A stretch of DNA of 50,811 nucleotides from a virus (taxonomy: Duplodnaviria > Caudoviricetes). The stretch's first letter is position 1; every line of letters begins with the position of its first letter. The position numbers and the translations under genes were made by a program. The notes under the pieces are model-generated. The model searched no databases. It had not been told where the DNA came from and saw only the letters and a list, made by a program, of their open reading frames with translations. The DNA lies in the IMG/VR virus record IMGVR_UViG_3300037485_001666, positions 1 through 50,811 of that record, one strand, 5' to 3'. This document shows, in pieces, positions 18,791-46,758 of this stretch.

Positions 18791-19411
18791 ATGAGGGATG
18801 AAACCTATATGACGAAAGAAGAGTTTGAGCAAGTCATTTCTATTTTATCGGAACTTTCGAGAGTTTCTTTGATGGATAGAGCGAAGCAATTCTATTGGGC
18901 CCACATTCGGCACATACCATATGACGAGATTAAACCAGCGATAAACCTGTTCTGTTCTCGTGGCAAAATGCCCACAGTCGAAGAGCTCCTTCGCGAATGC
19001 GGACGCACCGGAGTTCAAGACGCTGAAGAACGTCTCATGGAAGAGGCTACACCAGAGTTTCTGAAAAAGTCGCCAAAGTCATCAATTGACAACGCTTTAG
19101 GTCACCTTACGGTTTGCATTGATGCTAATGACGTTCAAGATAATGAAGAAGCAGAAGTAACTATATCAAACAAAATAGCAGAGCTATGTGCTAAAGGATG
19201 GATTGTAATTGATATGAGCGAACTATTCATGAATACATTCCACTCAGAGGCATTGAATTTAGGATGGAGAGTAACCAAGAAGCGCTTCTATCGCAACGTC
19301 AACTTCTTCCGATCAAGCATCGACGGAAAGAATGTCGAAGTCGATTCTCAGTACGGAAACTTTCAACGTTGGTTCAAGCGAGGCATCTTGCAGAAAACAA
19401 CGGAGGGATAA
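18791..19411 (+). CDS. Putative helicase loader/inhibitor (G39P-like N-terminus)
   Basis: Follows the initiator; MTKEEFEQVISIL...YWAHIRHIPYD...MPTVEEL pattern. Confidence 0.5.
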   Translation: MRDETYMTKEEFEQVISILSELSRVSLMDRAKQFYWAHIRHIPYDEIKPAINLFCSRGKMPTVEELLRECGRTGVQDAEERLMEEATPEFLKKSPKSSIDNALGHLTVCIDANDVQDNEEAEVTISNKIAELCAKGWIVIDMSELFMNTFHSEALNLGWRVTKKRFYRNVNFFRSSIDGKNVEVDSQYGNFQRWFKRGILQKTTEG

Positions 19412-19432
19412 TCGTGAACATGACCCGATTGC

Positions 19433-19458
19433 TTTTCCCCCGTATACGTTCCCCTCAT
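19433..19458. repeat. C-rich dispersed repeat TTTTCCCCCG(T)ATACGTTCCCCTCAT
   Basis: Matches 31836-31860 except for a 1-nt indel; related copy at 30156-30175. Confidence 0.85.
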
Positions 19459-19547
19459 TCCCCCCTTTCCCCCACTCCCTTGAGTACGGGAGCGGGGCAG
19501 GGACCAACGTTTCGGGGTATCGTTTCCCCCCCGAATGCACAGGGGGC

Positions 19548-19817
19548 ATGACGGTGGACTTGTCGAAGCTCAATGAGATTGACTGGAATCAAACGCCGAC
19601 GGTCTGCGTGGAGATCACACCGCAGTCAGAACAGCAGGCCGAGTTCCATGCAGCAATGCACATCCGCCAAATCGAGTTCGAGAAAAGCCTCCCGCCTCAC
19701 ATCGTCGTCATTCACAAGACCGAGTACGTCATCGGCGCCAAGCTCAAACTGTTCGTTACAATTTGTCACATCGACCACCCACATAGGAGATCATTATGTC
19801 GCCAATCTGCGCAGTAG
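19548..19817 (+). CDS. Hypothetical protein
   Basis: Start MTVDLSKL after AGGGGG; protein-like composition. Confidence 0.5.
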   Translation: MTVDLSKLNEIDWNQTPTVCVEITPQSEQQAEFHAAMHIRQIEFEKSLPPHIVVIHKTEYVIGAKLKLFVTICHIDHPHRRSLCRQSAQ

Positions 19818-22680: not shown

Positions 22681-23157
22681 ATGAGAATCTACAAAGGCCA
22701 GGTCTTCCGAGAAGGACAGCATTTCATCTCAACCATCTCGAAGATAGCTGGTCGAGTTTGGACTGTCGCCAAGGTTCGTTTCACGGACGCCAACGGATGG
22801 CTCTACGTTCGTCCAATCATCGTCATGCAGCGCACCACTGGACAGCTTCTCATGCTCAACTGCATGGGAGCAGAGAAGGTCGTTGTTCCACCTGCGATGG
22901 TCAAAAGAAAACCAACGCCTAAACCACGACCTGGAAGCATCTATCGCCCAAGCTCTGTCTGTGCGTCGCCTCATTGCCTTTGTGTGTTGAGAGTCGTCTC
23001 TCGGGATTTGGTCGAAGTCATCGCCGTCCATTTAGATGAAGACGTTTGGATGAGAGTTGAGAATGCACGAAAGAGGCCGATGTCCATTCATCGTCTTCAC
23101 TGGAGATACAAGCCACACGCTACCGACATCAATCTGATAGGAGACAACCCATGTTGA
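22681..23157 (+). CDS. Hypothetical protein
   Basis: AAAGGA SD before ATG 22681; overlaps the queD start. Confidence 0.55.
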   Translation: MRIYKGQVFREGQHFISTISKIAGRVWTVAKVRFTDANGWLYVRPIIVMQRTTGQLLMLNCMGAEKVVVPPAMVKRKPTPKPRPGSIYRPSSVCASPHCLCVLRVVSRDLVEVIAVHLDEDVWMRVENARKRPMSIHRLHWRYKPHATDINLIGDNPC

Positions 23158-23579
23158 GAGTATCGAAGAAGTTCCATTTCTGTGCTGCCCATCGCCTCAT
23201 TGGACACAAAGGATTGTGCAAGAACCTCCACGGCCATCGCTACGAGTTGCAGGTATTCTGCGAAGCCGACGAGCCAGACGACGTTGGGTGCACTGTCGAT
23301 TTTGGTGAACTCAAAGACACTGTAGGCGAATGGATCGATGCTCATCTTGACCATGCTACAATGGTGTTCGATGAAGATACAGAACTGCTGGAATTCTGTA
23401 TGCGAACTGGCTCAAAGAGATTCTATTTTAGCGCCAACACGACCGTGGAAAACATGATTCAAAAAATCTACGTCAGGATGCAATCTGAATTGCTCAACCA
23501 ACGTTGGCGTCTGGTCGGTATGAAAATGTGGGAAAGTCCGAACAACTGCGTGACCTATACGGGTCCCAAAGGAGAATAA
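23151..23579 (+). CDS. queD: 6-carboxy-5,6,7,8-tetrahydropterin synthase
   Basis: FHFCAAHRL, CKNLHGHRY, VDFGELK, LDH, TTVENM, WESPNN. Confidence 0.95.
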   Translation: MLRVSKKFHFCAAHRLIGHKGLCKNLHGHRYELQVFCEADEPDDVGCTVDFGELKDTVGEWIDAHLDHATMVFDEDTELLEFCMRTGSKRFYFSANTTVENMIQKIYVRMQSELLNQRWRLVGMKMWESPNNCVTYTGPKGE

Positions 23580-23582
23580 GCT

Positions 23583-24356
23583 ATGTGGCAGGTGTCAGAA
23601 ATTTTCCGGAGTATTCAGGGTGAGGGCATTCGAACGGGCCGCGCTACGACGTTCCTGCGCCTTGCAGGGTGCAACCTGCGATGCTCCTGGCGGTGCGACA
23701 AAAGGGGACCGGGGGGGCGAATCATTCCCACCTACATCTCCTGCGACACCGAACACGCTCAGAACGCAATCCACGTCCCACGGCCCGTTCCCGATTCTCA
23801 GAGCCTCGCACAGTGGCTGGGAAGCATCGTCAAACCCATGGATGACATCGTGGTCACTGGGGGCGAGCCGACCATGCAATCCATCGACTCGTTCCTGGAA
23901 GACAACGACCTCCGCAGGATCCTGACCAACCATCACTGCACCCTGGAAACGAACGGCACAGCCGCCGTCAAGGTCCCGTGGGCGAAGCTCCTGAGCATCT
24001 CCCCAAAGGTCACAGCCGATGGAACGGACGGCCGCATGATGGCCATGTGGGCATCGGAGACGGCCCAGCTCATCACAGAAAATCCCGGCTCGCAGGTCCA
24101 GCTCAAGTTCGTTCTGGGCAACGTCGGAGATATCGACATCATCACCTCGTTCCTGCAGGACGTTTACAACCAGATGTCCTATGCAAGCAACTCTGAGATT
24201 CTGGTCATGCTCATGCCGGTGTCGGTTAATCCGTCCTATTTCGACCAACTGTCGCGTGACATTGTAGACAACATTGTGCTCCAGAACTCAGGCATTGATT
24301 TCAGATTGTGCGACCGCCTGCACTATCGACTCTGGAAAGGGGAGCAGGGAAAATGA
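23583..24356 (+). CDS. queE: 7-carboxy-7-deazaguanine synthase (radical SAM)
   Basis: EIFRSIQGEG..TG, FLRLAGCNLRC...CDT, VVTGGEP, LETNGT, SISPK, LKFV, RLH. Confidence 0.95.
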   Translation: MWQVSEIFRSIQGEGIRTGRATTFLRLAGCNLRCSWRCDKRGPGGRIIPTYISCDTEHAQNAIHVPRPVPDSQSLAQWLGSIVKPMDDIVVTGGEPTMQSIDSFLEDNDLRRILTNHHCTLETNGTAAVKVPWAKLLSISPKVTADGTDGRMMAMWASETAQLITENPGSQVQLKFVLGNVGDIDIITSFLQDVYNQMSYASNSEILVMLMPVSVNPSYFDQLSRDIVDNIVLQNSGIDFRLCDRLHYRLWKGEQGK

Positions 24357-24901
24357 TGTTCCACACAGCCAAATACCTGCGCCGTCTTTTTGAGGAGTAC
24401 GGAGAAAACCCAGAACGGGAAGGACTCGTCGATACCCCAAACCGAGTTCTCAGGGCCTGGCGCGAAATCTTGAAAGGATACAAAAGTGAACCAAGGAACA
24501 TCCTCAGCGCCACCTTTCAAAGCTCAGCAGCAGGCATTGTCTGTTGTAAAGAAATCGAGTTCTACTCAACTTGTGAGCATCACTTGCTCCCGTTCTTTGG
24601 ACGCGCTCACATCGCATACATACCTGACGGAAAAGTCGTCGGTGTGTCGAAACTCGTCCGACTCGTCGAGTGCTATGCACAGCGACTGCAAATCCAGGAA
24701 GAAATAACGGAGCGTGTCTCGTCGGATTTGATGACCTATCTTCAACCTCGTGGCTGTATGGTCGTCGTCGAAGCGCAGCATCTGTGCATGAAAGCACGCG
24801 GCGTCAAGAACCACAGCTCCGTCATGGTCACGAGTTCAATCCGTGGATGTTTCGATGACCACGCCATTCGCATGGAAACCCTCAAACTGTTCGGGATGTG
24901 A
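24353..24901 (+). CDS. folE: GTP cyclohydrolase I
   Basis: REGLVDTPNRV, CEHHLLPFFG, GVSKLVR, RLQIQE, AQHLCMKARGV. Confidence 0.97.
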   Translation: MMFHTAKYLRRLFEEYGENPEREGLVDTPNRVLRAWREILKGYKSEPRNILSATFQSSAAGIVCCKEIEFYSTCEHHLLPFFGRAHIAYIPDGKVVGVSKLVRLVECYAQRLQIQEEITERVSSDLMTYLQPRGCMVVVEAQHLCMKARGVKNHSSVMVTSSIRGCFDDHAIRMETLKLFGM

Positions 24902-24904
24902 CAC

Positions 24905-26299
24905 ATGAGAAGAAGACGCGCAGTGATCGTTGTTCCCGTCGCCAAAGAACGTATCAACACCCCCATGAGCTTCGCCCCGTTCGGCATGTATGCCATGCTG
25001 GACATGAAAGGTATCGATGTTCACTTTGAGTTCGTGCGATACGAGGACGATGTTGAGGAACGAGTTTGGTCAAAGATGATCGACTACGACGAACTCTATG
25101 TGAGCATCACCAATCCTGACCAAGAATGGATCATCGAGTTTTGTCAGAAAGAGATTGCAGCACACAACAAGATGCTTGAGAAATTCATCACACCTCACTG
25201 GTGCGAGCCTCAGTTCTTTGGACTCAAAGACTACATTCCCGACGACTGCCTGACCGCTTCGGACGACTGGATACAGGGAATGTTTCGCATTCATCTCTAC
25301 TACCAAACCTTCAAACGTTATCGCGCCTACAACGGGGAACTCGACCATCATTTCTGTACCGTGTCCAATCGAACGGTCGTTCCAGTGTTCACGTCCTGGG
25401 GTTGCAAGAACAGATGTCCTTTCTGTTACAACTCATCTGAGAAGAGATATGAGTACGTTGAGTGCTCACTCGACGACCTCGAAACCATGGCTCACATGAT
25501 GGACCACGAGAATATCTCATTCCATTTCATGGACGAGGATTTGTGCAAGCATTCAAAACTCAAACTCATCCTTGAGATGTGTAAGGATAGTCAGAGTATC
25601 TGTCTGTCCAGCATCGAAGCTTATCTCCATCTTCACTACTCAAGACAAGAGCAGTTCAACAAAGCCTTTTTCTGTATTGAAGTGGGTGTCGAAGACCTGG
25701 ACGAAAAGATTTCAGGAAAGAAGCAGAACGTGCAAGGGTTCGCTTCGCAGATTATGGAAGACGGACCATACCCCTACTTTCTCACCCAGACGTTCCTTCC
25801 AGGACAGACGGTCGGTTCCCTGTATCGACTCGGAAAGGCACTCAGGGACTCCATCGGAGCGTCCTACATGGGCATGATTCAACCTCGCGGTCGATGCAAC
25901 GGTCACGCAAACTGCATCGGTCAGATGTTCAATCCCATCAAGGGAACAACCTACTGGAAGAAGATTGAAGCCAAGGAGCCGGGCTATGAAGGCCGCTGGC
26001 TTGAACGTCCAGGCACGAGAATGAGTCCGTCCTGGGTTCCTCAGTCGTTCATTGATAGCGTCAAGAAGTCACGCTTCGTCATGAGTAACTACCTCGCATT
26101 CAAGCGTGACCTGTTCGCCGGCTTGTGGGCATGGCACAGAATTAGCGCCAATGATGCTGAGTTCATCATCGAACGAATTCAGTTGTCGGCTTGGGATTTC
26201 ATGTCTCTCGAACCTTGCCTGTCGCATCTGCTAAAGAAAGAAGCCGTGGTTGCTGCGATGCTTGCGCGGTTCGGTGCGCTCCAGGAGGCACTGAAATGA
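24905..26299 (+). CDS. Radical SAM protein of unknown function
   Basis: TSWGCKNRCPFC (CxxxCxxC), FHFMDED, IEVGVE, FLPGQT; about 150 aa N-terminal extension. Confidence 0.85.
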   Translation: MRRRRAVIVVPVAKERINTPMSFAPFGMYAMLDMKGIDVHFEFVRYEDDVEERVWSKMIDYDELYVSITNPDQEWIIEFCQKEIAAHNKMLEKFITPHWCEPQFFGLKDYIPDDCLTASDDWIQGMFRIHLYYQTFKRYRAYNGELDHHFCTVSNRTVVPVFTSWGCKNRCPFCYNSSEKRYEYVECSLDDLETMAHMMDHENISFHFMDEDLCKHSKLKLILEMCKDSQSICLSSIEAYLHLHYSRQEQFNKAFFCIEVGVEDLDEKISGKKQNVQGFASQIMEDGPYPYFLTQTFLPGQTVGSLYRLGKALRDSIGASYMGMIQPRGRCNGHANCIGQMFNPIKGTTYWKKIEAKEPGYEGRWLERPGTRMSPSWVPQSFIDSVKKSRFVMSNYLAFKRDLFAGLWAWHRISANDAEFIIERIQLSAWDFMSLEPCLSHLLKKEAVVAAMLARFGALQEALK

Positions 26300-27342
26300 A
26301 GACCAAAGTCCTGCTTGTTCCATCAACCAACGACGACTCACGCCCGCAGTGGCACATGCTAAACGAGATCAAGAGCTACTCGTTCCCAAGCATGTGTCGT
26401 CTGCCTTTTGTGGAGAATCCACTCGACCAGAAATTCCACACCCAAAGGCACTGCGAGTCGTTCTTCCACAAGACTGAACTCATCGTCGGCTGGTCCGATA
26501 TGGTTCGGCCAATCATCGAAACTGTGCTCAAAGAGATTCGAGACAAGGGAAGCAACGTCACCGTGTTTTGGATGGACGGATTTACCCCAGCCATTTTCTC
26601 AGTCAAGTCCATTCTCGACGCTATGAACGTCTCACGGGAACGTGTCAAACACGTCTGCTTTTTCCACGGCTCGCCTAACATTCCAGAAGACTCATTCATG
26701 CACGCTAAGTATCTTCAGGTGCTCGATTTCCACATCTGGAGTCAATACGACCAGATATTCATCGCCCGAGAATATCTCAAGAAGTACTTGCCCGATGCAC
26801 CAAAGAAGGTCTGTCTTGACTGGCTTCCACTCGACAGAAAGCTGTTCAATCAGACGCCGCTCATGCCAGACGATCGCGATCCGGTCGTGGTCTTTCCTCA
26901 CAGATGGTGCTACACAAAAGCCAGATATGACTTCATTAGACAGTGTCTTGAAAACAAACGTCGTGGCCTCATTCTGACACCCGTCCCAATCCCAAAGGCC
27001 CAGATTTGGAATGGCACCAAAACTCAATGCGACAAGATTTTCAAGCTGGTCGAAATCCGCTTGTGCACCAGGGAAACCTACCTCGCTTCGCTGGCCAGAT
27101 CGAAATGGATATTCAATGAGAGCGAGTACGAGACGTTCGGAATTGCGACTGTCGAAGGCATGGCACTCGGCTGTGAGCTTCTACCTCTTCCTGACTGCAA
27201 AGTGAAATTGGTTCCCGAGGCTGTTACACTGCTACACGAGGAACGACTAGACATCGAAACAGCACAGGTCAGGCAACGAAAATGCCTCAAGCTCATCGGT
27301 GATTCAGTTCGCGACCTCTGGGGGTATCACGGACATGGCTAA
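26296..27342 (+). CDS. Glycosyltransferase (GT-B fold, GT4-like)
   Basis: VVVFPHRW..K and ETFGIATVEGMALGC (ExFG-x4-E signature); CAGGAGG SD; ATGA coupling. Confidence 0.82.
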   Translation: MKTKVLLVPSTNDDSRPQWHMLNEIKSYSFPSMCRLPFVENPLDQKFHTQRHCESFFHKTELIVGWSDMVRPIIETVLKEIRDKGSNVTVFWMDGFTPAIFSVKSILDAMNVSRERVKHVCFFHGSPNIPEDSFMHAKYLQVLDFHIWSQYDQIFIAREYLKKYLPDAPKKVCLDWLPLDRKLFNQTPLMPDDRDPVVVFPHRWCYTKARYDFIRQCLENKRRGLILTPVPIPKAQIWNGTKTQCDKIFKLVEIRLCTRETYLASLARSKWIFNESEYETFGIATVEGMALGCELLPLPDCKVKLVPEAVTLLHEERLDIETAQVRQRKCLKLIGDSVRDLWGYHGHG

Positions 27343-27919
27343 GAAAAAGGCACACGCGAAGTTCGAGATTGAGACGTTTCCATTGGTCATGTTGTCCAAG
27401 TACGAACGTAATCCACGCTACAACGAGATGGCCGTCGATGCGGTCATGAAAAGCATTGAGAAGTTCGGCTTCAACAATCCCATCCTCGTCAATAAAGAAA
27501 TGACAATCCTCGCTGGACACACCAGATATGAAGCATGCAAGCGCCTCGGCTACACGGAGGTTCCCTGTATTGTTCTGGACCATCTCACACCTCAGGAACA
27601 GAAAGCGTTCCTCATCGCGGACAACAAGACGTCCGAGCTTGCCGGCTGGAATGAGTCGATGCTCTCGGAGCTGTTCAACGAACTCAAGCTCGATGATTTT
27701 GATTTGGAGTTTACGGCATTTTCAAAGACGGAAATTGACGTCCTTGCCGGTGGGTTCAACTACGAAAACATCGAGCCGTCCGACCGCAAGTCAAAGAACA
27801 AGGGAACCACCGCTACCCTGAAACTGACACTGCCGGTTGAACGACTCCCAACCTTCAAGGCCAGTCTCGAAAATTGGCTTCAGGAGAACAAGCATGAGTA
27901 CGTGGCCGTTAGCCAGTGA
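27335..27919 (+). CDS. ParB/sulfiredoxin-like N-terminal domain protein
   Basis: YERNPR, SIEKFGFNNPILV, ILAGHTRYEA, FLIADNKTSELAGWN. Confidence 0.9.
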   Translation: MAKKKAHAKFEIETFPLVMLSKYERNPRYNEMAVDAVMKSIEKFGFNNPILVNKEMTILAGHTRYEACKRLGYTEVPCIVLDHLTPQEQKAFLIADNKTSELAGWNESMLSELFNELKLDDFDLEFTAFSKTEIDVLAGGFNYENIEPSDRKSKNKGTTATLKLTLPVERLPTFKASLENWLQENKHEYVAVSQ

Positions 27920-28850
27920 CGACTCATACTGCATGAACATTCTCTTGTCCTATGTGTACTTCCCCCGAAACGGGCGCGCGGCACAGAGGCTGCTCCAGGT
28001 TCTGGCCGAAATGCACCCAGGCGGATATCGGCTCCTCATTGACTCGGGCGCGTTCTCGGCTGCGAACTCCGGGAAGATTGTGTCGCTGGACGAGTACAAC
28101 GCTTTCCTCAAGAAGCTGCCACGCGACCTGAACTACCGCGCCATCCAGCTCGACGTGGTCAACGATCCACAGGCCTCTTTCGAGAACTACCTGCGACAAC
28201 GGGACGCCGGGGTCAACGTCGTGCCGGTCTGGCAGAAAGGGGCCTCCCTGGAGCAACTGGAAAAGCTCTACTCGGTGACCGACTATGTGATGCTCGCAGG
28301 GGGCCGGGTCGACAGAACCTACCTGCTCGAAGCTCACAAGCTCATTGGCGACCGGAAGGTGCACTGGCTCGGGAACACCCACATGCGCTGCATCTACGAG
28401 GGGAAGCCCTGGTCGTGCGACTCGGTGACGTGGCTGAACTCCGGCCGGTTCGGATCCGTTCCCATCTTCTCGGCCAGGTCTGATTTCGACCAGTGGTGGA
28501 TCCGGAAAGACCCCGGAGCGGTCGGGAAGGTCGCCGACTGTCTGCGCGACTGCGGAATCTCGATCAAGGAATCCTTCGATATCCTCAACTGGAAGGTGAC
28601 CCAAATCTCCGGATTGGAGGGTCGTCTCGAACTCCATCGCTTCGTGGGTCGCCTCGTGTGGGCCTACAAAGCCAACTTCATTTTCCGCAGACTGAACACT
28701 CGAGTCTTTTTGGCAATCGCTGGATATCACGACCTTCTCAGTTTCATTCTTGCAAACCAAGCCCTACTTCGAAGAGGAGTCATTCAAGATGACGATTTCA
28801 AGCAACGATTCTCAAGACAGATGCGTCATTCTTTTTTCAGGCGGGATTGA
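27894..28850 (+). CDS. dpdA: DpdA-like DNA guanine transglycosylase (TGT-fold)
   Basis: LLIDSGAFSA, QLDVV, VVPVWQ, KVHWLG, SCDSVTW motifs; embedded in the que operon. Alternative start at 27933. Confidence 0.78.
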   Translation: MSTWPLASDDSYCMNILLSYVYFPRNGRAAQRLLQVLAEMHPGGYRLLIDSGAFSAANSGKIVSLDEYNAFLKKLPRDLNYRAIQLDVVNDPQASFENYLRQRDAGVNVVPVWQKGASLEQLEKLYSVTDYVMLAGGRVDRTYLLEAHKLIGDRKVHWLGNTHMRCIYEGKPWSCDSVTWLNSGRFGSVPIFSARSDFDQWWIRKDPGAVGKVADCLRDCGISIKESFDILNWKVTQISGLEGRLELHRFVGRLVWAYKANFIFRRLNTRVFLAIAGYHDLLSFILANQALLRRGVIQDDDFKQRFSRQMRHSFFRRD

Positions 28851-29490
28851 CTCAATCTGCGCAACCATGATTATGCAGGCGAGACATTCAACTCCCACAC
28901 TAATCTTTATGGATTATGGACAGAAGCATTATGTGGCAGAAAAACGGGCGTCCATTCTAACCTCAAAGCTACTCGACATTCCACCGACCGATCTTCACAA
29001 TGTTGGGTTGACGGCCTTCTTCAATGAGAGCAAGGACTGGCTCCTTTCCGAACAAGCACAACGGGACATGAGAATTGGCAGGCATCATTTCTCATTCGTC
29101 CAGGGCCGGAACGCCGCCATGATTCTGAGGGCCGCCATGTTCGCGTCCGTCCGTGGCATCAACAAAGTCGTGATAGGGGCGAATGAGAATGACGTTATCG
29201 GGGGCTTTCCCGATTGCTCCCTGCCATTCCTGGAAGCAATGCAAGTCGTTTTGTCAACCTCTTTCCGGGATCCGATTCAACTTGTTGCGCCTTGTAGGGG
29301 AATGATGAAGACGCAGACGATCGCCTACATCCTCAAGATTGGTGCTCGCGGTGAACAACTTCTTGAGAATTCATGGTCCTGCTACGAGGGGAAGACCACC
29401 CCGTGCGGCTCCTGCGGCTCTTGTGTCGTCCGGCAGAATGCTATTCAGGCTTCTCGAAGCCCTGCAACACTTTTGAATCAAGATCAATGA
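28789..29490 (+). CDS. queC: 7-cyano-7-deazaguanine (preQ0) synthase
   Basis: LFSGGIDS PP-loop, DYGQ, FVQGRN, FPDC, SWSCY...PCGSCGSC; AGGAG SD. Confidence 0.95.
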   Translation: MTISSNDSQDRCVILFSGGIDSICATMIMQARHSTPTLIFMDYGQKHYVAEKRASILTSKLLDIPPTDLHNVGLTAFFNESKDWLLSEQAQRDMRIGRHHFSFVQGRNAAMILRAAMFASVRGINKVVIGANENDVIGGFPDCSLPFLEAMQVVLSTSFRDPIQLVAPCRGMMKTQTIAYILKIGARGEQLLENSWSCYEGKTTPCGSCGSCVVRQNAIQASRSPATLLNQDQ

Positions 29491-29683
29491 AAATATACGG
29501 GGGAATCGTCAGAACGACGTTGACCCAAAATGAGGTGTACGGCTCGTCCTCGGAAAGCAACTCTCGCATGTGTACTTCGTCCCTCAATTTATTGCCTTGA
29601 TGGTCCTTGTAACAGGCAACGCAATTGTCATCACCATACTGTTGCAACAATTCCCACACTCTCATCTTCATAGGAAACTTCAT
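29441..29683 (-). CDS. Hypothetical protein
   Basis: GAGGG SD before MKFPMK; convergent with queC. Confidence 0.5.
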   Translation of the reverse strand: MKFPMKMRVWELLQQYGDDNCVACYKDHQGNKLRDEVHMRELLSEDEPYTSFWVNVVLTIPPYIFIDLDSKVLQGFEKPE

Positions 29684-29684
29684 T

Positions 29685-29876
29685 TCAACCCTCGTCTCTT
29701 TCTGCACACAACTGTTCTGCGGCTTCGCTCACGGCGTCGTGTGCGCACTCGATACAGGAATCATTGTCTAGGATCCAGATCGCCCGCTTGATAAGAACAC
29801 TCGCGGAACTCTCGGAACGGGAACACTGTCTCGCTAAATGAACAATCTTTCGGATCTTCATTTCTCGTGTTGTCAT
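29685..29876 (-). CDS. Hypothetical protein
   Basis: AAAGGAG SD before MTTREMK. Confidence 0.55.
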   Translation of the reverse strand: MTTREMKIRKIVHLARQCSRSESSASVLIKRAIWILDNDSCIECAHDAVSEAAEQLCAERDEG

Positions 29877-30437
29877 GTGTCGTCTCCTTTCTCGTTTCGT
29901 CGTCACATGAAAACGTTAATGCAAGGACCGTTCCACCTCTAACCACCACTGATCAGTGACACCCCCCTGTGGGAAGTGCACAAGGACTTCCCATCTAGAC
30001 ACTGTTTCGTAACTGGTCTCACGGGGTTACAAGTTCGACACCACCCAATCGCTGAACACTTCCCCCCGTTCCCCCCCCCTCGTTTCCGGGGGAAACCCCC
30101 CGTCATTCCCTACCCTGAAAATCGCCCTGCGCCCCCCGGAAACACCACCGGAACGTTCCCCCGTTACGTTCCCCTGTGCCCCCGGAAGCGCACACATATA
30201 GAAGGGGAAACGCCTGGTGTTCACAGACTCGACACCACCCATTCATCTGACACCAACGACGTGCACCTGGGGCACCAACGGGAAGTGAATCGACGCGAAA
30301 ACGCACCCATTCTTTGAACATATCGCCTTGTCCTGTGCGCACTAATGTTCACTAGTTAGAGTTGTCACGGTTCTTGCATTATCGTTTTTGTCGGGGGAAA
30401 CAAACAAACAACAAAGCCTCGACAAAAGGAGTTTCAA

Positions 30438-30608
30438 ATGGCTAAGAGTGTGTATCGGTTCCGTGTTGCGAAGATCCTGGGCAAGTTCCGCGTTTGTCGT
30501 TTCGGTGAGTGTTTGGGTTGGGTTGATGCAGTTGATCATGAGGAAGCCCTGGAAGTCGTGTGCAAGTTGAATGGAATTCCCGTTCCCCGCGAGTTCGTCG
30601 CAGCGTAA
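30438..30608 (+). CDS. Small hypothetical protein (56 aa, not in ORF track)
   Basis: AAAAGGAG SD, MAKSVYRFRV...REFVAA; stop lies just upstream of the ribozyme. Confidence 0.65.
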   Translation: MAKSVYRFRVAKILGKFRVCRFGECLGWVDAVDHEEALEVVCKLNGIPVPREFVAA

Positions 30609-30612
30609 GCAA

Positions 30613-30680
30613 GCCGAAACCCCCCTCGGGTGGGGTCGCGCTGGAGTGTCCTACAGCGCCTGATGATGGCAGGACAACAC
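30613..30680 (+). ncRNA. Type II hammerhead ribozyme with pseudoknot
   Basis: GCC-GAAA, stem III CCCC/GGGG, GUC cleavage triplet (cut after 30637), stem I GCGCUG/CAGCGC, CUGAUGA-U-GGC closing stem II. Loop I GUCCU pairs with downstream AGGAC. Confidence 0.88.
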
Positions 30681-30697
30681 TGAAAGGAGTGTGATTC

Positions 30698-31180
30698 ATG
30701 ACTAACGCGAAGCGCGTTACGATCAATAAGTTCCAGTTTGTGATGTGGGTTCATACGAACGGGTTGTGGCGGGGTAAGTTGTTCTGTCGTGTGAAGCGCG
30801 AGAACGGCACGAAGTACACCCCCACCTGGAACAAGAAGAGCGAAGGGGCGCTTGGAAAAGCGATTCTGACGTTCGGTGTTCAGAAAGGGATTTGGACCGA
30901 GGAGATGTTGAAAGATACGAAGAATGTGCTGGTTGAGATGATTGAATATCACCCCATCACGCGAGACGGGAACGTCAGCATCATGAGCGAGAATGAGGCG
31001 TACGATATTCTTTCCGTTCGCAAGGACGAGATTCTCGCAGTGGTTGAAACGGGCGAGGAAGGCGACGACGAGTTCGCGGACGAGGAAGAAGCGGAAGGCG
31101 ACGACGAGTTGCCCCCTCCCCCCGCAGCGCCCGCAGGGGAATGGACGAACAAGGCCACCAAGGGCCGGAAGAAGAAGTAG
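30698..31180 (+). CDS. Hypothetical protein with acidic, Pro-rich and basic C-terminal tail
   Basis: AAAGGAG SD directly after the ribozyme; 160 aa. Confidence 0.75.
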   Translation: MTNAKRVTINKFQFVMWVHTNGLWRGKLFCRVKRENGTKYTPTWNKKSEGALGKAILTFGVQKGIWTEEMLKDTKNVLVEMIEYHPITRDGNVSIMSENEAYDILSVRKDEILAVVETGEEGDDEFADEEEAEGDDELPPPPAAPAGEWTNKATKGRKKK

Positions 31181-31312
31181 GGAATGGTTCCCCCCCTTTC
31201 CCTTTCCCTTTCCCCTGAATGTTCCCAAGGCAGGAGTTCCCGTTGGGCCAGGAGGCCCCTGAGGTGTCGCAGGCATGCGGATAATCGAAACGGGTTTAGT
31301 TAGGAGTTATGT

Positions 31313-31537
31313 ATGCTGAACAAGCTGCAAGAGTTGGTATTAGCGCGTGCTAGTTTGATTGACTATACGAGGAACACGAGAGAGGACGTCAAAAGGTGTG
31401 AGGAAAAGGTCGCTATTGTTCACGAAAAGTTGAGAAAAGCTGAAGCTGATTTGCTCGCCAAAGAAGCTGAACTGATGGCTCACGTCGAACAGATGAGCAA
31501 CGAGAAGCATCCAGCGAATGTGGAGGTGACAAAATGA
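31313..31537 (+). CDS. Small coiled-coil protein
   Basis: TAGGAG SD; heptad-like sequence. Confidence 0.65.
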   Translation: MLNKLQELVLARASLIDYTRNTREDVKRCEEKVAIVHEKLRKAEADLLAKEAELMAHVEQMSNEKHPANVEVTK

Positions 31538-31794
31538 TTGGTTGGAACATGACCCCGAGACGGTTGCAGATATGGTTTGGGATCTGGAACTGCATGTCGT
31601 TCCGGGAATTCGCTCAGGTGATCTACGGCAGAACGAGCGACGACGCTTTGCAGAACGCGGAGTATTTGATGGAGAAGTTTGAGAAGTGGAAGCGTTCGCC
31701 TCTCGATTTAGTGTGCTACCTGGACACGCCACGAGTGAAGCGCTTGATGGAATATAGCGAAGAGCAGGAAGAGAAAGAAAAAAGAAGCTTCTGA
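31534..31794 (+). CDS. Hypothetical protein
   Basis: GGAGG SD; ATGA coupling. Confidence 0.6.
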   Translation: MIGWNMTPRRLQIWFGIWNCMSFREFAQVIYGRTSDDALQNAEYLMEKFEKWKRSPLDLVCYLDTPRVKRLMEYSEEQEEKEKRSF

Positions 31795-31835
31795 CGTTCC
31801 CCCCCCTCATTCCCCCCGCCCCTCACACCATCACG

Positions 31836-31860
31836 TTTTCCCCCGATACGTTCCCCTCAT
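31836..31860. repeat. C-rich dispersed repeat, second copy
   Basis: TTTTCCCCCGATACGTTCCCCTCAT, near-identical to 19433-19458; intergenic, upstream of the head genes. Confidence 0.85.
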
Positions 31861-32012
31861 CGGTCCCCTCACGAGCGCGTGACGCTCCCCCTAGGGCGAT
31901 TCCAACGACACCCGATTGACACTCCCTGACGTACTGTTTGACATCACACAACAACTCGCTGATCATTGCCGTAGGACATAGTCCTTCCCAAGCATACAAG
32001 GAGATTCACCCG

Positions 32013-32378
32013 ATGAATGACCCACTCAGGCGCTACGAAATCATCGCGCTTTCTTCCTTTAGCGACGCAGACATAACCAGTGAACCAATTGAGTTGAGCG
32101 AGTTCGACGGCCCAGCACTCATGCAACTTTCATGGACTGGTCTTGCGGGTGACGCTCTCAACACGCCCACATTCACCGTCGAGCAATCTGTCGACAAAGC
32201 GCAGTGGGACACGGTCAGCACAACGACCATGACCTCTGCTATGGCTGCTGCTGGTGGGACTGCAATCACCCTCGACATCCTCCACGCTCAATATTATCGC
32301 CTCAAGGTTCTCGCAGCTGACGTCACCGAGGGCCTGGTCAAAGCCCTTGGCACCTTCAAGGGGAGAACCAGACCGTGA
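32013..32378 (+). CDS. Putative virion structural protein
   Basis: AAGGAG SD; beta-rich; immediately precedes the portal. Confidence 0.55.
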   Translation: MNDPLRRYEIIALSSFSDADITSEPIELSEFDGPALMQLSWTGLAGDALNTPTFTVEQSVDKAQWDTVSTTTMTSAMAAAGGTAITLDILHAQYYRLKVLAADVTEGLVKALGTFKGRTRP

Positions 32379-34666
32379 AATTTCCTTGGTCACTCGGGCC
32401 AAGGGAGAAGTCCCAACGGCCAACCGAAAACCCAGCTCCGGTTGAGGCACAGGCCACAGACGAAAGCGGTCGTCTCATCTCGTTGAAGCACGAAGTCGAA
32501 GACCTCCTTGATGTCATGACACAGCAGGTCAACGGCAACATCGTTTCCAAAGCGTTCGACTGGCAACATTATTCGATGGTGACCGAGGGCGGCATCAACG
32601 GAATGTTCCAGGGCGAGTTCGCGACGACACCAAACCTCCGCACACTCAAGTCACTCTACGTTCGTGAGAACTGGGTCGGCATCGGAGTCGATGCGATCGC
32701 CCGTCAATTCCTTCGCCTGCGCTTCATCCTCGTCAGGCAATTGGACGACTCCCGAGTTGAAATAGTCAAGCGGCATGCGGCTATTGACTTGCTAAACAAG
32801 GTTGACTCAAAGCTTCACAGTGAACTTATGTGTGATCTTATACTCACGGGTCAAGCGTATTTCTGGACTAGACCCGACCTAACAAACCTCATCCTTCTTC
32901 CAGCCGAGCGGATGGAGCCCAAGTTTGGAATCCGCAAAGATGGAAAGTATGGCGTCATTGAATATGAGTTCATCAAGGACATCACGCAGAGCGGCAAGAG
33001 TATTGTCAAGCTCACTGCGGAAGAAGTGACCCACATAAAGATGCCCAACCCATTTTCCAATCTGTTTGGACTGCCGCCCTTGGTCACAGCGGCCATGCCA
33101 ATCCTGATCGACCGCTACGGCAAGGAATACGTCATAAGTTTTTTCCTCCGTGGCGGCACGACAGCAGGTATCTGCGAAACGCAAGCGACCAGCGCCGACC
33201 AAATCACTCGCCTGTTGAAAACAATCCAGACGGCATTTTCGACTCGGCGCAATATGCACTCCGACAAAATCCTGCCGGGTGGCGTGACCTGGAAGACACG
33301 CGGACTGTCCTTCTCGGAGATCATGTTCGACGTGCTCCAGGACAAGAACGCAAAGCAGATTCTGGCGCGGTTGGGTGTTCCCCCCGTGTGCGCCGGCATG
33401 ACCGAGAGTGTGAATTATGCGAACGCCGAGGCCCAATTGGAGGAGTTCCATCGTCAGACGATCCTCCCGATGGCGTCCCTGCTCTGTGGTGGCATCCAGC
33501 GCGGAGCCTTTGGTGCTCAGATGGGCATCCAGGAAGACGGCCTCGAACTCGCAATCGACTTCAGCGACAACCGGTATGTTAACGAGTTTGGAAAGAAGCT
33601 CAACGAGGACGCAAAGCTCGCGCCCATCACCACCGTGAACGAGCGCCGTCAGCGTCTGGGATTCCAGCCTCTGCCGCAGGGAGATTCACGCGGCGACCTT
33701 CTTTCCTCGGAGCTGACCAAACCTGCGCCGTCGGGCCTGGGCCTCTTTGGAATGCCGGAGCCTGTGGTGGCAGAACTGCCGGTGACGACCCCCGAAGAGT
33801 CAAGCCAGGATTCAAAAGGAATCCCGATGTCGGCCCGGGCCTCGCTCAAAGCCTCGCAGGATAATCTAGAAAGGAATCTGCCGAAGAGTTTGTCCGACCT
33901 TTTCTCCCGAGAGTTTGGTGCCTGGGAACAGATTGTGCTCGACAATCCGGGAAACGAATCTGAGTCCACTTCGAAGATTCTCAAGCGTGCGAAGGCGTTC
34001 TCAGAGAAGTACGCGGACACCGTCATCGAGCATGTGATGTTGGCCTATGACGCACAGATGTCTCAGGCCGTTAAGAAATTTAACCTCTCCCGAAAGGCCC
34101 CCGCAGGTCGTGGCACACAGACGGAAGCTGACCGACAGGCCAACCTTGCAGCCGTCCGGGAGCGGTCCAAGAAGTTGCTCCAGGGGAAGATAGCCAACAT
34201 CGAACACGGACGCTTTCAGGGCTACTCCAAGAGCGAAATGACCAGGGTCTACAGCCAAATCCAATCCGACATGGAAGCAGGAAAATCAGGTGATGAAATC
34301 TCGTCAGGAATTCGAACCAAGTTCGGCGAGTTCTACGAAGGACAAGCAACCACGATCGTCCGAACCGAGTACGGCGCATCCATGGCCGAATCCCAGTCCC
34401 AGTTCTCAAAAGACCTCGGTTCGCAATGCACTTCGATCCGCAAGGTGTGGCTCGCCATCGTTGATGACCACACCCGAGATTCGCACGTCGCCGCAGACGG
34501 ACTCGAAATCGAAGGAGAGCCAGACGTGGTTCTCGATAAGAAGTTTTCAGAGGTAGATGGCAATGCACCAGACCTTCGATATCCCAAAGAGGAAGGCGGA
34601 GAGGCCGGAGAGTGCATCAATTGTCGATGCCAAGTCAGCTATGAGCCAGTTGAATGGAAGGACTAA
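32375..34666 (+). CDS. Portal protein (HK97-like) fused to a MuF/gp7-type head morphogenesis domain
   Basis: EEVTHIK.PNP, ARLGVPP, NYANAEAQ, TVNERRQRLGFQPL; C-terminal IVRTE, KVW..DDHTRDSH, LRYP, INCRC. Confidence 0.9.
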   Translation: MKFPWSLGPREKSQRPTENPAPVEAQATDESGRLISLKHEVEDLLDVMTQQVNGNIVSKAFDWQHYSMVTEGGINGMFQGEFATTPNLRTLKSLYVRENWVGIGVDAIARQFLRLRFILVRQLDDSRVEIVKRHAAIDLLNKVDSKLHSELMCDLILTGQAYFWTRPDLTNLILLPAERMEPKFGIRKDGKYGVIEYEFIKDITQSGKSIVKLTAEEVTHIKMPNPFSNLFGLPPLVTAAMPILIDRYGKEYVISFFLRGGTTAGICETQATSADQITRLLKTIQTAFSTRRNMHSDKILPGGVTWKTRGLSFSEIMFDVLQDKNAKQILARLGVPPVCAGMTESVNYANAEAQLEEFHRQTILPMASLLCGGIQRGAFGAQMGIQEDGLELAIDFSDNRYVNEFGKKLNEDAKLAPITTVNERRQRLGFQPLPQGDSRGDLLSSELTKPAPSGLGLFGMPEPVVAELPVTTPEESSQDSKGIPMSARASLKASQDNLERNLPKSLSDLFSREFGAWEQIVLDNPGNESESTSKILKRAKAFSEKYADTVIEHVMLAYDAQMSQAVKKFNLSRKAPAGRGTQTEADRQANLAAVRERSKKLLQGKIANIEHGRFQGYSKSEMTRVYSQIQSDMEAGKSGDEISSGIRTKFGEFYEGQATTIVRTEYGASMAESQSQFSKDLGSQCTSIRKVWLAIVDDHTRDSHVAADGLEIEGEPDVVLDKKFSEVDGNAPDLRYPKEEGGEAGECINCRCQVSYEPVEWKD

Positions 34667-34669
34667 CAA

Positions 34670-35566
34670 ATGAGTCAGATCGCGATTGACGGTACAAAAT
34701 TCCATGAGGTCAGTGACACGCTGAAGGACCGAATCTTCAAGTCACTCAAGGCTCCTCACCTTCTTCCGTTCACCAAGAAAGAGTTTGCAGCCGACAAGCC
34801 ACTTGTCATCGAAGGCTACGGCAACATCGCCAAACCAGATCGTGGCGGGGAAGTGATGCCCAAGGAATGTTGGGACCTCGCCAATTACCTGATGAATCCT
34901 ATTCTGTGCCGCGACCATTGTTGGTCGAAAATCGTTGGCATCGCCGAGGTCGTTGAAGCTCGGGACGAGGGCCTTTTCGTGCGTGGTCCCATCGGAATTC
35001 CGACTGAGTTCGGATTCACCGAAGACCAAATTGAGACACGTTCCCTCGTGGCACAGGGTTTCCTCAGAATGATGTCCGTCGGTTTCATTCCGTGGCAGAT
35101 GCTCTTCGACGAGGAGCAAGACTTGATCATCCATCAAAAGGCTGAGCTTCTCGAAATCTCTCTCGTCTCAATTCCGATGCAGCAAGAATCTAGTTTCAAT
35201 ATCGTCAAGAGCATGTTGCTCCGAAACGATCCGATCATGATTGGAGGAAAAGGCATGGCTACCAAGGGCGAAGGTGAAGGCGCAGGAACGGAAGATCCGA
35301 AAAAGCCTGAGGGCGACAAACCCATCATGGAAGTCGTCACTAAGATGTATGAGGAACTCCAGCAAAACACCAAGCTCTGTAGCGAAATGCACGGCAAGGT
35401 TTGCGGTGGAGACAACTCCAAAGAACTCGAAGCGGCTCAAGAGGAAATCAAAAACCTCACCGCCAAGGTCGAGGAGCTGACAAAGGAATTGGAGGTCGTC
35501 AAGACCGAAAAGACAGAAATCGAAAAGAGCTTGGAAGGTGTCCTCGCTCTCGTCGAGACGAAATAA
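34670..35566 (+). CDS. HK97-type prohead protease with scaffold-like coiled-coil tail
   Basis: IEGY, DRGGE, NPILCRDH, MSVGF, LLEISLVSIP; C-terminal coiled coil. Confidence 0.9.
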   Translation: MSQIAIDGTKFHEVSDTLKDRIFKSLKAPHLLPFTKKEFAADKPLVIEGYGNIAKPDRGGEVMPKECWDLANYLMNPILCRDHCWSKIVGIAEVVEARDEGLFVRGPIGIPTEFGFTEDQIETRSLVAQGFLRMMSVGFIPWQMLFDEEQDLIIHQKAELLEISLVSIPMQQESSFNIVKSMLLRNDPIMIGGKGMATKGEGEGAGTEDPKKPEGDKPIMEVVTKMYEELQQNTKLCSEMHGKVCGGDNSKELEAAQEEIKNLTAKVEELTKELEVVKTEKTEIEKSLEGVLALVETK

Positions 35567-35577
35567 CGGGGGGAGTT

Positions 35578-36954
35578 ATGCCAACGATTCAAGAACGTGC
35601 AGCGACCGCAATCAAGAACCATTCTGATAACAAGGAGAATTCACTCATGCCTGGAAACGCACCTGCTCTTCTCAAGGGAAATGCTCATTTCGTCAAGAGT
35701 CTTCCTTCTCTCATGGGCTACGGCTCCATCGCTGCGATGCTCGGAAACGGCGACGCAGAGCTTGGCTCCAAGGCTCACCTGCGTGGCGAAGGAACCAAGT
35801 CCGCCAACTTTGGCGACAAGGAAATGTACGGCCATATTGACGGCGAACTCCTGGACGCCGGCCTCACCCTCAAGAAGACCATCCACGCTGCCATCCTGAA
35901 AGAGCAGATTGACGCTGGCGTGCAGAAAAGAAACCCTCGTCCTCTCCAGGAGACGGAGTTCTTCAAGGTCTTTTGTGAGCCGCTGGTGAAGGCTTATGAC
36001 TTGACCGACTTCAGCAACTGGGCACCCACGTCCAACTTCCGTTTTTATCTGGACGAGTTTCATGTGCCTCCTGGCTTGGCTGAGATGTTTCCTCAGCAGC
36101 CGATGCAGACCCGAGTCCAAGAAGTTCCCACTGCGACTGGAGAACTCCTGGGTCGCTTGGAAGCTGACAACGCAACCTTCGGTGCTCAGTATGAAAGCCA
36201 ATCCAAGATCACGCTGACCACGAAGGACAACGTCGTCCACACGGACATCACGGAAGACCTCATTGAGGACGCCGTGCCGAGCGCCTTCGACCGCCTGCGC
36301 GAGAAGGTCCTCATTGGTTTGCAGAAGTCGCGTGACCGCGCCATTTTGGACGGTGACACGACCAACCCCCACATGGACAACGACGTGACGGCAGGTTCAA
36401 CGGACTTCCGCACGGCCTGGATGGGGCTCCGCAAAAAGGCATTGGCCAACACCACGAACGGTTCTGTGTCCAACGCCGGCGACCCTCTGAACAAGGCCAT
36501 CCTGGACGCCATGATCACGTTGATGGGAGAGTTCTTTGACGACACCAACGATCTAATCTGGATTCTTTCTGCGAAGCAGAAGAACAAGATCATCACTGGT
36601 GCCCTGCCCGAATTGCTCACCCTCTGGGCATTTGGAAATCAGGCGACTCTCCTCACGGGCAAGTGTCCTCCCATCTATGGCGTTCCTGTCCACGTCGCTC
36701 GCCACATGCGAAACGACCTGCACACCTCCGGTGTCAACACTGTCGGCGGTCCCAACGTTTCCACGGGCGTTCTGCTCGTCAAGAAAAGCCGCTTCATGGT
36801 CGGTACCAAGGCTGGCGCACGGGTCTGGATTTCTCCCTCGTTGCCCACGTCTGACAAGATGCTGTGCACCGGAAAAGAGCGCGTGTCCTTCGGCGGCGTG
36901 ACCCAAAGCGCAACCGAACAGAGCGTCATTTACGGATACAATGTTCTGTCGTGA
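35578..36954 (+). CDS. Major capsid protein (HK97 fold)
   Basis: GGGGAG SD; follows the protease; DITEDLIED, DRAILDGD, IYGVPV motifs. Confidence 0.85.
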   Translation: MPTIQERAATAIKNHSDNKENSLMPGNAPALLKGNAHFVKSLPSLMGYGSIAAMLGNGDAELGSKAHLRGEGTKSANFGDKEMYGHIDGELLDAGLTLKKTIHAAILKEQIDAGVQKRNPRPLQETEFFKVFCEPLVKAYDLTDFSNWAPTSNFRFYLDEFHVPPGLAEMFPQQPMQTRVQEVPTATGELLGRLEADNATFGAQYESQSKITLTTKDNVVHTDITEDLIEDAVPSAFDRLREKVLIGLQKSRDRAILDGDTTNPHMDNDVTAGSTDFRTAWMGLRKKALANTTNGSVSNAGDPLNKAILDAMITLMGEFFDDTNDLIWILSAKQKNKIITGALPELLTLWAFGNQATLLTGKCPPIYGVPVHVARHMRNDLHTSGVNTVGGPNVSTGVLLVKKSRFMVGTKAGARVWISPSLPTSDKMLCTGKERVSFGGVTQSATEQSVIYGYNVLS

Positions 36955-46376: not shown

Positions 46377-46758
46377 GTGGCAGTTCATCACACCTGAGGA
46401 AGTGGACAAAAAGGCGCTCTCCTGTGCCAAGTGCCACGCCGATACCAAGAGGCTCCGCAGGTGCGAGGAGGACCGATGGGACTTTGGCAAACGTGACGGG
46501 AGTTCGTTCCCCATCAAAATGCGCGACGAGCAGGACGGTTACGGATTCTGTCCGGCCAAAGTCATCCGGGACTCTCCCGGAACGACGGTTCTCTGTCAGG
46601 GTCTTTACGTCCAGTGGAAGGCAGGCAAGGTGGAATATGATAACCTAACTTTTGAAGAGGTCAATCGACTCTATCTTTTCATCCGGCGTTGGGAAGGTTT
46701 TGAAAAGTCTAGGGACTACCACTTCCTTTCCCGCCTGCTCGTGGGAGACAAGAAATAA
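46357..46758 (+). CDS. Tail assembly chaperone extension (gpT-like), probably reached by frameshift
   Basis: Frame open from 46294 across TCAAAAAG; no well-spaced SD for GTG 46402; TAATG coupling to the tape measure. Confidence 0.5.
   Translation, partial: KVRAWIEWQFITPEEVDKKALSCAKCHADTKRLRRCEEDRWDFGKRDGSSFPIKMRDEQDGYGFCPAKVIRDSPGTTVLCQGLYVQWKAGKVEYDNLTFEEVNRLYLFIRRWEGFEKSRDYHFLSRLLVGDKK

Follow-up and report, generated by a model that had tools for sequence, protein, structure and literature searches.

In an uncultured phage, does the short spacer that separates two small genes encode a self-cleaving ribozyme, and if so, what would the cut do to the message in which it lies? The phage is represented in IMG/VR by a record of a virus judged complete (CheckV 100%; IMGVR_UViG_3300037485_001666, Duplodnaviria, Caudoviricetes), and the window studied here is this whole record of 50,811 bases. 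The original prediction placed a pseudoknotted type II hammerhead ribozyme between an open reading frame (ORF) of 56 amino acids (aa) and one of 160 aa, with cleavage after position 30637.

Type II hammerheads of bacteria and phages were described as a class in 2011 by Perreault et al. (PMC3088659). The screening rules given in that paper concern the core positions and allow no mispair in the core-adjacent pair of any of the three stems. The pseudoknot is placed there at the first base past stem II, and in a related type II ribozyme it was needed for fast cleavage. The same authors proposed that long phage transcripts are processed into single-gene or operon-length mRNAs. The ends produced by hammerhead cleavage are a 2',3'-cyclic phosphate and a 5'-OH (PMC8782182).

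Materials and methods

IMG/VR was scanned with a pattern limited to the core, the extra U of the phage sequence (see below), and two pairs of stem II. For detailed comparison, we took 80 loci of the at least 117 matching stretches. These loci contained 84 pattern matches, 82 of which parsed as three-stem hammerheads and gave 75 unique sequences. The subclass covariance model, designated R1, was built from 16 other viral sequences in which stem I has 6 bp and its loop 10 nt, and the phage hammerhead was left out. For the covariation analysis, the phage hammerhead was aligned with the 16 model sequences (n = 17).

Three sequencing runs match the stretch. Positions 30407-30808 were covered only by the DNA run, which contains the entire stretch and is its likely source, and small shares were present in the other two runs, one of which was an RNA library. 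Contigs from such runs cannot show RNA ends and bear on cleavage neither way.

Results

Parts of the hammerhead

The element occupies positions 30613-30676 and consists of the following parts.

30613..30615, + strand: 5' strand of stem II (11.3-11.1), pairing with 30668-30670 (3 bp)
30616..30619, + strand: core G12 A13 A14 and A15.1 (GAAA), invariant across the 17-sequence alignment
30619..30636, + strand: stem III hairpin, with the A15.1-U16.1 pair, four C-G pairs, and the C30625-G30630 pair closing a UCGG tetraloop
30635-30637, + strand: GUC cleavage triplet
30637..30638, + strand: predicted cleavage site, C17 (30637) followed by G1.1 (30638), from the hammerhead core alignment
30638..30659, + strand: stem I hairpin of six perfect pairs (30638-30643 with 30654-30659)
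30644-30653, + strand: loop of stem I, 10 nt
30660-30666, + strand: core C3-A9 (CUGAUGA)
U30667, + strand: extra U between A9 and G10.1, an insertion in the Rfam alignment
30668..30670, + strand: 3' strand of stem II (10.1-10.3), G30668-C30670
30671..30676, + strand: 3' tail of the 6-bp pseudoknot, forming Watson-Crick pairs with U30647-U30652 of loop I

All of the conserved hammerhead core positions are present (C3 U4 G5 A6 N7 G8 A9, G12 A13 A14, A15.1-U16.1, and H17). The core-adjacent pairs (G30638-C30659, G30668-C30615, and A30619-U30636) are all intact, provided that U30667 is read as an inserted base; otherwise, 10.1-11.1 would be a U/C mispair. In both the Rfam and the subclass model alignments, loops cap stems I and III, and the strand ends lie at stem II, which is the type II topology. 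Loop I pairs over 6 bp with the bases immediately 3' of stem II, and the tail of this pseudoknot begins at the first base past stem II (offset 0); a pseudoknot of at least 4 bp at this place is a majority feature among type II hammerheads, not a universal one. There is a single mismatch in stem III (C30624/U30631), five pairs off the core. Each feature named in the original prediction (CUGAUGA, GAAA, GUC, the 6-bp stem I, stem III, the short stem II with its extra U, and the pseudoknot) thus lies where it had been placed, and the position predicted for the cut, after 30637, agrees with both the Rfam and the subclass core alignment.

Rfam match and chance resemblance

A search with the Rfam hammerhead models had been set beforehand as a test. 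Hammerhead_II (RF02276) matched 30612-30678 at 38.3 bits, 1.3 bits above its gathering score of 37; covariance models do not score the loop I/tail pseudoknot as pairing. The E-value was 2.5e-4 for the whole 50.8-kb genome against all 4227 families, and 5.9e-8 for the single family. No RNA family besides RF02276 was found in the Rfam scan of the whole genome at E-values of up to 5. The scan of 25000-36000 gave two further matches only, to microRNA models and far under their cut-offs, and the RF02276 search of 14 control genomes gave nothing above the cut-off.

Given such short core motifs and an Rfam score near the threshold, the spacer might resemble the hammerhead consensus by chance, with no ribozyme ancestry. 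However, both E-values speak against such a coincidence, as does the subclass model, in which the phage sequence had a rough E-value of 5.3e-16. A three-stem descriptor that is much looser than the actual structure matched the real sequence once, and only 2 of 200 dinucleotide shuffles contained one or more matches. A pseudoknot of at least 6 bp that starts no more than two bases from stem II arises in 0.36% of random 10-mer/12-mer pairs from the genome. The element also fits the intergenic spacer exactly and lies on the coding strand. The shuffles, the pseudoknot statistic, and the subclass model effectively refute a chance likeness, to which we give almost no credence.

The MFE structure of the single sequence was a different, nested fold and not the hammerhead (z-score -0.57). 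Such folding does not model the pseudoknot, so this result was to be expected. When about -8.5 kcal/mol is counted for the pseudoknot duplex, the hammerhead fold together with the Shine-Dalgarno hairpin (-26.0 kcal/mol) is competitive with the nested MFE fold (-31.4 kcal/mol).

A viral subclass with an extra U

At least 117 stretches in IMG/VR have the same extra-U layout, the extra U having been written into the search pattern. Among the 75 unique members from the 80 loci compared, stem II is 3 bp long in 64, and in 16 stem I is of the same form as in the phage hammerhead (6 bp, loop of 10 nt). A helix of at least 5 bp between loop I and the tail can form in 44 of the 75, compared with a mean of 8.5 and a maximum of 16 when the partners were permuted (1000 permutations).

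Model R1 gave the phage hammerhead a score of 64.7 bits, and this was the single match in the genome. Over 81 sources, the model gave 94 matches, among which the phage hammerhead ranks 26th. The assignment as a type II pseudoknotted hammerhead, made from the core and the pairing, is thus upheld by a complete core and by the scores with both RF02276 and the subclass model.

In the 17-sequence alignment, 94.7% of the cells are paired, and both partners change in 14 of the 21 pairs. In 500 shuffles, none of five measures was reached, and controls in which the alignment was slid paired 28-48% of the cells. Stem I is 100% paired, with changes on both sides in five of its six pairs, and stem III is 99% paired, with such changes in four of six. 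In stem II, pair 2-62 covaries, and the remaining two pairs are invariant C-G. The pseudoknot changes on both sides in four of its six pairs, and the phage sequence has the same register. All four helices, the pseudoknot included, covary at the subclass level.

The phage hammerhead shares with the extra-U subclass the frame AGCC-GAAAC ... CUGAUGA-U-GGC-AGG, the register of the pseudoknot, and the placement from the stop codon to the ribosome-binding site. It differs in the third-from-last position of the pseudoknot, where it has a pair of its own (U-A, seen in 1 of the 17 sequences). It also has five extra bases and a small hairpin before the Shine-Dalgarno sequence, whereas many relatives run directly into GAAAGGAG. 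Near-identical copies of the phage hammerhead were not found in metagenome or viral contigs.

When RF02276 was run on 20 subclass loci, 21 matches of 34.0-55.1 bits were obtained, 18 of them at or above 37. Because Rfam itself recognises the subclass loci, the near-threshold score of the phage sequence reflects the form with a 6-bp stem I and a 10-nt loop and not a dubious motif.

These comparisons bear on whether the element could be a decayed or slow relic of a hammerhead, in a spacer that is now merely structured intergenic RNA. The C30624/U30631 mismatch and the extra U30667 in the junction would fit such decay, and so would the Rfam score barely over the cut-off and the occurrence of a single copy in the genome and none in the nearest relative; slow or inactive variants exist among phage hammerheads according to Perreault et al. 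(PMC3088659). However, every core nucleotide and core-adjacent pair is intact, and the mismatch, distant from the core, is followed by a C-G pair that closes the UCGG loop. The extra U recurs in at least 117 viral stretches, whose subclass has covarying helices, the 6-bp pseudoknot is perfect, and the subclass model score lies in the middle of the family. We regard a relic as very improbable. The analysis confirmed, at the level of sequence and predicted structure, that 30613-30676 is a genuine type II hammerhead motif, typical of a very common kind that has already been described.

Several of the viral loci contained more than one candidate. Second hammerheads were observed about 230-320 nt from the first in nine loci (L023, L034, L036, L045, L056, L059, L065, L088, and L021), and L039, L054, and L069 have two or three extra-U pattern matches each. 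Gene-by-gene arrays of hammerheads are known from prophages, and the viral loci with two hammerheads are of that kind. In another viral contig, a partial match to Rfam RAGATH-8 (L028:331-388, - strand; 44.7 bits against a cut-off of 86.7) directly adjoins a hammerhead.

Placement between the flanking genes

The following features flank the element.

30438..30608, + strand: upstream 56-aa ORF (from the ORF list), with the Shine-Dalgarno sequence AAGGAG at 30426-30431 and the stop codon TAA at 30606-30608
30677..30692, + strand: small hairpin, 30677-30681 with 30688-30692 (-5.3 kcal/mol)
30684-30689, + strand: Shine-Dalgarno sequence AAGGAG of the 160-aa ORF
30698..31180, + strand: downstream 160-aa ORF, with ATG at 30698, an acidic repeat, and a lysine-rich C-terminus

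The phage hammerhead fills the spacer, with 4 nt from the upstream stop codon to stem II and 21 nt from the pseudoknot to the downstream start codon. The coordinates agree with the earlier description of a ribozyme that begins 4 nt after the stop of the 56-aa gene and ends just before the Shine-Dalgarno sequence of the 160-aa gene. Similar placement was seen in the subclass by crude ORF criteria, which gave an upstream stop codon for 61 of the 94 matches (median gap to stem II, 1 nt; 0-4 nt in 47 of the 61) and a downstream start for 76 of the 94 (median, 14.5 nt past the pseudoknot).

The small hairpin forms in the MFE fold and again when the 3' product is folded, and the Shine-Dalgarno sequence AAGGAG is split between its loop (AAGG) and its stem. 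The 5-base insert accounts for the extra length of the spacer and pairs with the bases just past the Shine-Dalgarno core. As judged from the downstream sequences of relatives, the hairpin is no general feature of the family.

Neither the 56-aa nor the 160-aa protein had a Pfam or PHROG family or an ESM Atlas assignment. For the 160-aa protein, an exhaustive HMMER search of 1.84 billion cluster representatives gave only two remote homologues (38% identity), and no relatives were found in viral, metagenome, or genome contigs. A perfect 18-nt direct repeat in the 160-aa ORF (31057-31074 and 31093-31110) codes for a repeated acidic motif in the C-terminal tail.

The close packing raises the question of whether an active ribozyme would cut constitutively, or whether its cleavage would be gated by translation traffic or by a switch at the ribosome-binding site. 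With a ribosome at the stop codon, stem II, the GAAA, and some of stem III would be covered, which would make the cut dependent on translation. In a variant of this reading, access to the ribosome-binding site would be switched, either by the downstream hairpin or by 30677-30681 pairing with loop I instead. The stop codon does abut the ribozyme, here and in most of the subclass matches with an upstream ORF, and there are two possible partners for 30677-30681, namely 30688-30692 at the Shine-Dalgarno site and 30645-49 in loop I. Regulated cleavage was raised as a possibility for phage hammerheads by Perreault et al. (PMC3088659). However, compact phage genomes give tight spacing anyway, the hairpin is weak and not conserved in relatives, and the 7-nt repeat shared by loop I and the Shine-Dalgarno site is not significant alone. 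Gated cleavage is, in our judgement, unlikely.

This repeat, GGAGUGU, was itself considered as a switch and was rejected, since loop I follows the family pattern and a 7-nt repeat less than 100 nt apart is not significant.

The extra-U subclass as a whole might be read as a modular intercistronic cassette, with the upstream stop codon directly at stem II and a ribosome-binding site soon past the pseudoknot. Folding of the ribozyme and upstream termination would be mutually exclusive, ribosomes would gate the cut, and in this phage the added hairpin would further tune translation of the released downstream message. We consider this reading unlikely; if it were true, the place and time of the cut in the phage message would depend on ribosome traffic.

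Genome context and relatives

Nearly all of the phage genes are on the + strand. The tape-measure gene is split, running off the 3' end at 46758-50810 with its last part at 17-334. Because this gene spans both ends of the record, the genome is circularly permuted, the linear record having been cut inside the gene. The tail, lysis, and recombination genes come first in the gene order and are followed by the 7-deazaguanine set. This set of DNA modification genes (23151-29490) comprises genes for QueD-like and QueE-like proteins, GTP cyclohydrolase, a transglycosylase-like protein, and QueC; a ParB-like nuclease gene and two unassigned large ORFs lie among them. The region 3' of the ribozyme contains three small ORFs, a portal/Mu F fusion gene (32375-34666), protease, capsid, and connector genes, and the terminase gene. 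The portal protein has a C-terminal Mu F-like head-morphogenesis domain, and the fusion is kept in most of the relatives found.

Between QueC and the 56-aa ORF are a C-rich non-coding stretch and two small ORFs directed leftward.

29441-29707, - strand: small leftward ORF
29685-29876, - strand: small leftward ORF with a strong Shine-Dalgarno sequence

Neither of these ORFs was assigned by Pfam, PHROGs, or ESM Atlas. The C-rich stretch, 411 nt long and situated between the leftward ORFs and the 56-aa ORF, looks like a divergent control region. Since this stretch and the leftward ORFs precede the 56-aa ORF, the rightward transcript with the ribozyme probably starts no more than a few hundred bases upstream. 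A promoter and terminator scan of 29300-32000 gave nothing useful upstream of the 56-aa ORF.

Two kinds of repeat were observed. A 34-nt inverted repeat (29910-29943 and 30355-30388, 85% complementary) flanks the 411-nt stretch. Three + strand copies of a C-rich 20-mer, TTCCCCCGNTACGTTCCCCT, are present (19436-19455, 30156-30175, and 31838-31857; two are exact and one has three mismatches), and no such repeat is expected from 100 shuffles. Two of the copies, at 30156 and 31838, fall between ORF calls, and the third, at 19436, is 25 nt past the end of the 18791-19411 ORF and inside an overlapping ORF call (19332-19817). The 20-mer might serve as a phage promoter or bind a protein.

Relatives of the locus were sought in several ways. 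Comparison of 29500-32400 with 50,697 phage records by blastn gave no match, and exact-peptide patterns of the portal protein gave no relatives. An alignment-based portal scan gave 11 loci, none of which had a hammerhead at the gathering score, and the whole records of the portal-relative loci had no hammerhead match at E-values of up to 1. The closest relative found is an 8-kb fragment in which the portal is 65% identical and the 146-aa ORF beside the portal gene is kept. Upstream of its portal gene, this fragment lacks a hammerhead as well as homologues of the 56-, 160-, 74-, and 86-aa ORFs; we thus consider that the hammerhead cassette sits in a variable region. An orthologous locus with a hammerhead was found neither in the contig searches nor among the portal-based relatives.

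Discussion

Proposed mechanism

We consider it quite likely that 30613-30676 acts as an active type II hammerhead of the common phage extra-U subclass and splits the 56-aa/160-aa message. Its most likely role would be to divide a polycistronic transcript, made rightward, into two messages. That the two ORFs are co-transcribed is assumed here, because no promoter was identified upstream.

The process may be pictured as follows. The rightward message would carry the 56-aa ORF, then the ribozyme, and then the 160-aa ORF. During synthesis, stems III and I would form in this order as local hairpins, and the final 10 nt or so would close stem II and the pseudoknot, after which the RNA would cut itself after C30637. 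The halves should then part, because they would be held together only by the 3-bp stem II and tertiary contacts. The upstream message would keep its stop codon, 29 nt before the cut, and its 3' end would be the G+C-rich hairpin of stem III, terminated by a 2',3'-cyclic phosphate. In the downstream message, the first base, with its 5'-OH, would lie directly at the foot of stem I; the pseudoknot would come next, and then the small hairpin that would present the ribosome-binding site. The outcome would be two independent mRNAs with fixed, structured ends, whose stability and translation would be uncoupled.

In bacterial mRNA decay, a hairpin ending in a cyclic phosphate and a structured 5'-OH end of this kind should slow exonucleases and 5'-end-dependent attack. 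It is therefore reasonable to infer, as the original prediction did, that the split transcript and its structured 5'-OH leader could stabilise the downstream mRNA or tune its translation.

This element is one more well-formed member of a large set, the phage hammerheads, for which the biological role is still inferred. A single ribozyme in a defined spacer between two small genes would make a clean single-copy test case for the setting of mRNA ends and for the insulation of the translation of the next gene.

Comparison with known hammerhead systems

RiboJ is an engineered insulator derived from a satellite-RNA hammerhead, in which the ribozyme and a small hairpin before the ribosome-binding site fix the downstream 5' end regardless of the upstream sequence. 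The likeness of RiboJ to the phage hammerhead is one of working only, with no family relation. As for a natural coupling of a phage hammerhead with a Shine-Dalgarno sequence, we found no relevant literature beyond PMC3088659.

An insertion at the same core position as U30667 occurs in the plus-strand hammerhead of chrysanthemum chlorotic mottle viroid and in hammerheads of Penelope-like elements. According to a review, the viroid hammerhead has an extra A10 between A9 and G10.1, and its change to U raised trans-cleavage 3-4 fold (PMC3705267). Hammerheads of Penelope elements conserve a nucleotide between A9 and G10.1 (PMC4209133). Going by what these two papers report, a U at this position is compatible with cleavage and may even favour it. 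The viroid and Penelope hammerheads are of type III or type I, belong to viroids or eukaryotes, and are without the loop I/tail pseudoknot, whereas the phage hammerhead is of type II.

In Desulfovibrio vulgaris, three predicted type II hammerheads near phage-like genes were found by cyPhyRNA-seq to cleave in vivo, with the 2',3'-cyclic phosphate and 5'-OH ends that the class should yield (PMC8782182). They resemble the phage hammerhead in being predicted type II members located, according to that report, near hypothetical and phage-like genes. They differ in that they lie on a bacterial chromosome and their cleavage has been detected, whereas the phage hammerhead comes from an uncultured phage and its cleavage is predicted.

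The phage hammerhead also corresponds to the type II hammerheads of RF02276 and PMC3088659, which, as described there, have the same core, the same topology, and the loop I/tail pseudoknot, and which also lie between varied phage genes. The phage hammerhead differs from RF02276 type II in the extra U between A9 and G10.1 and in being single and not clustered. It leaves our knowledge of the type II class unchanged and is an ordinary further instance of this well-known class, above the Rfam threshold.
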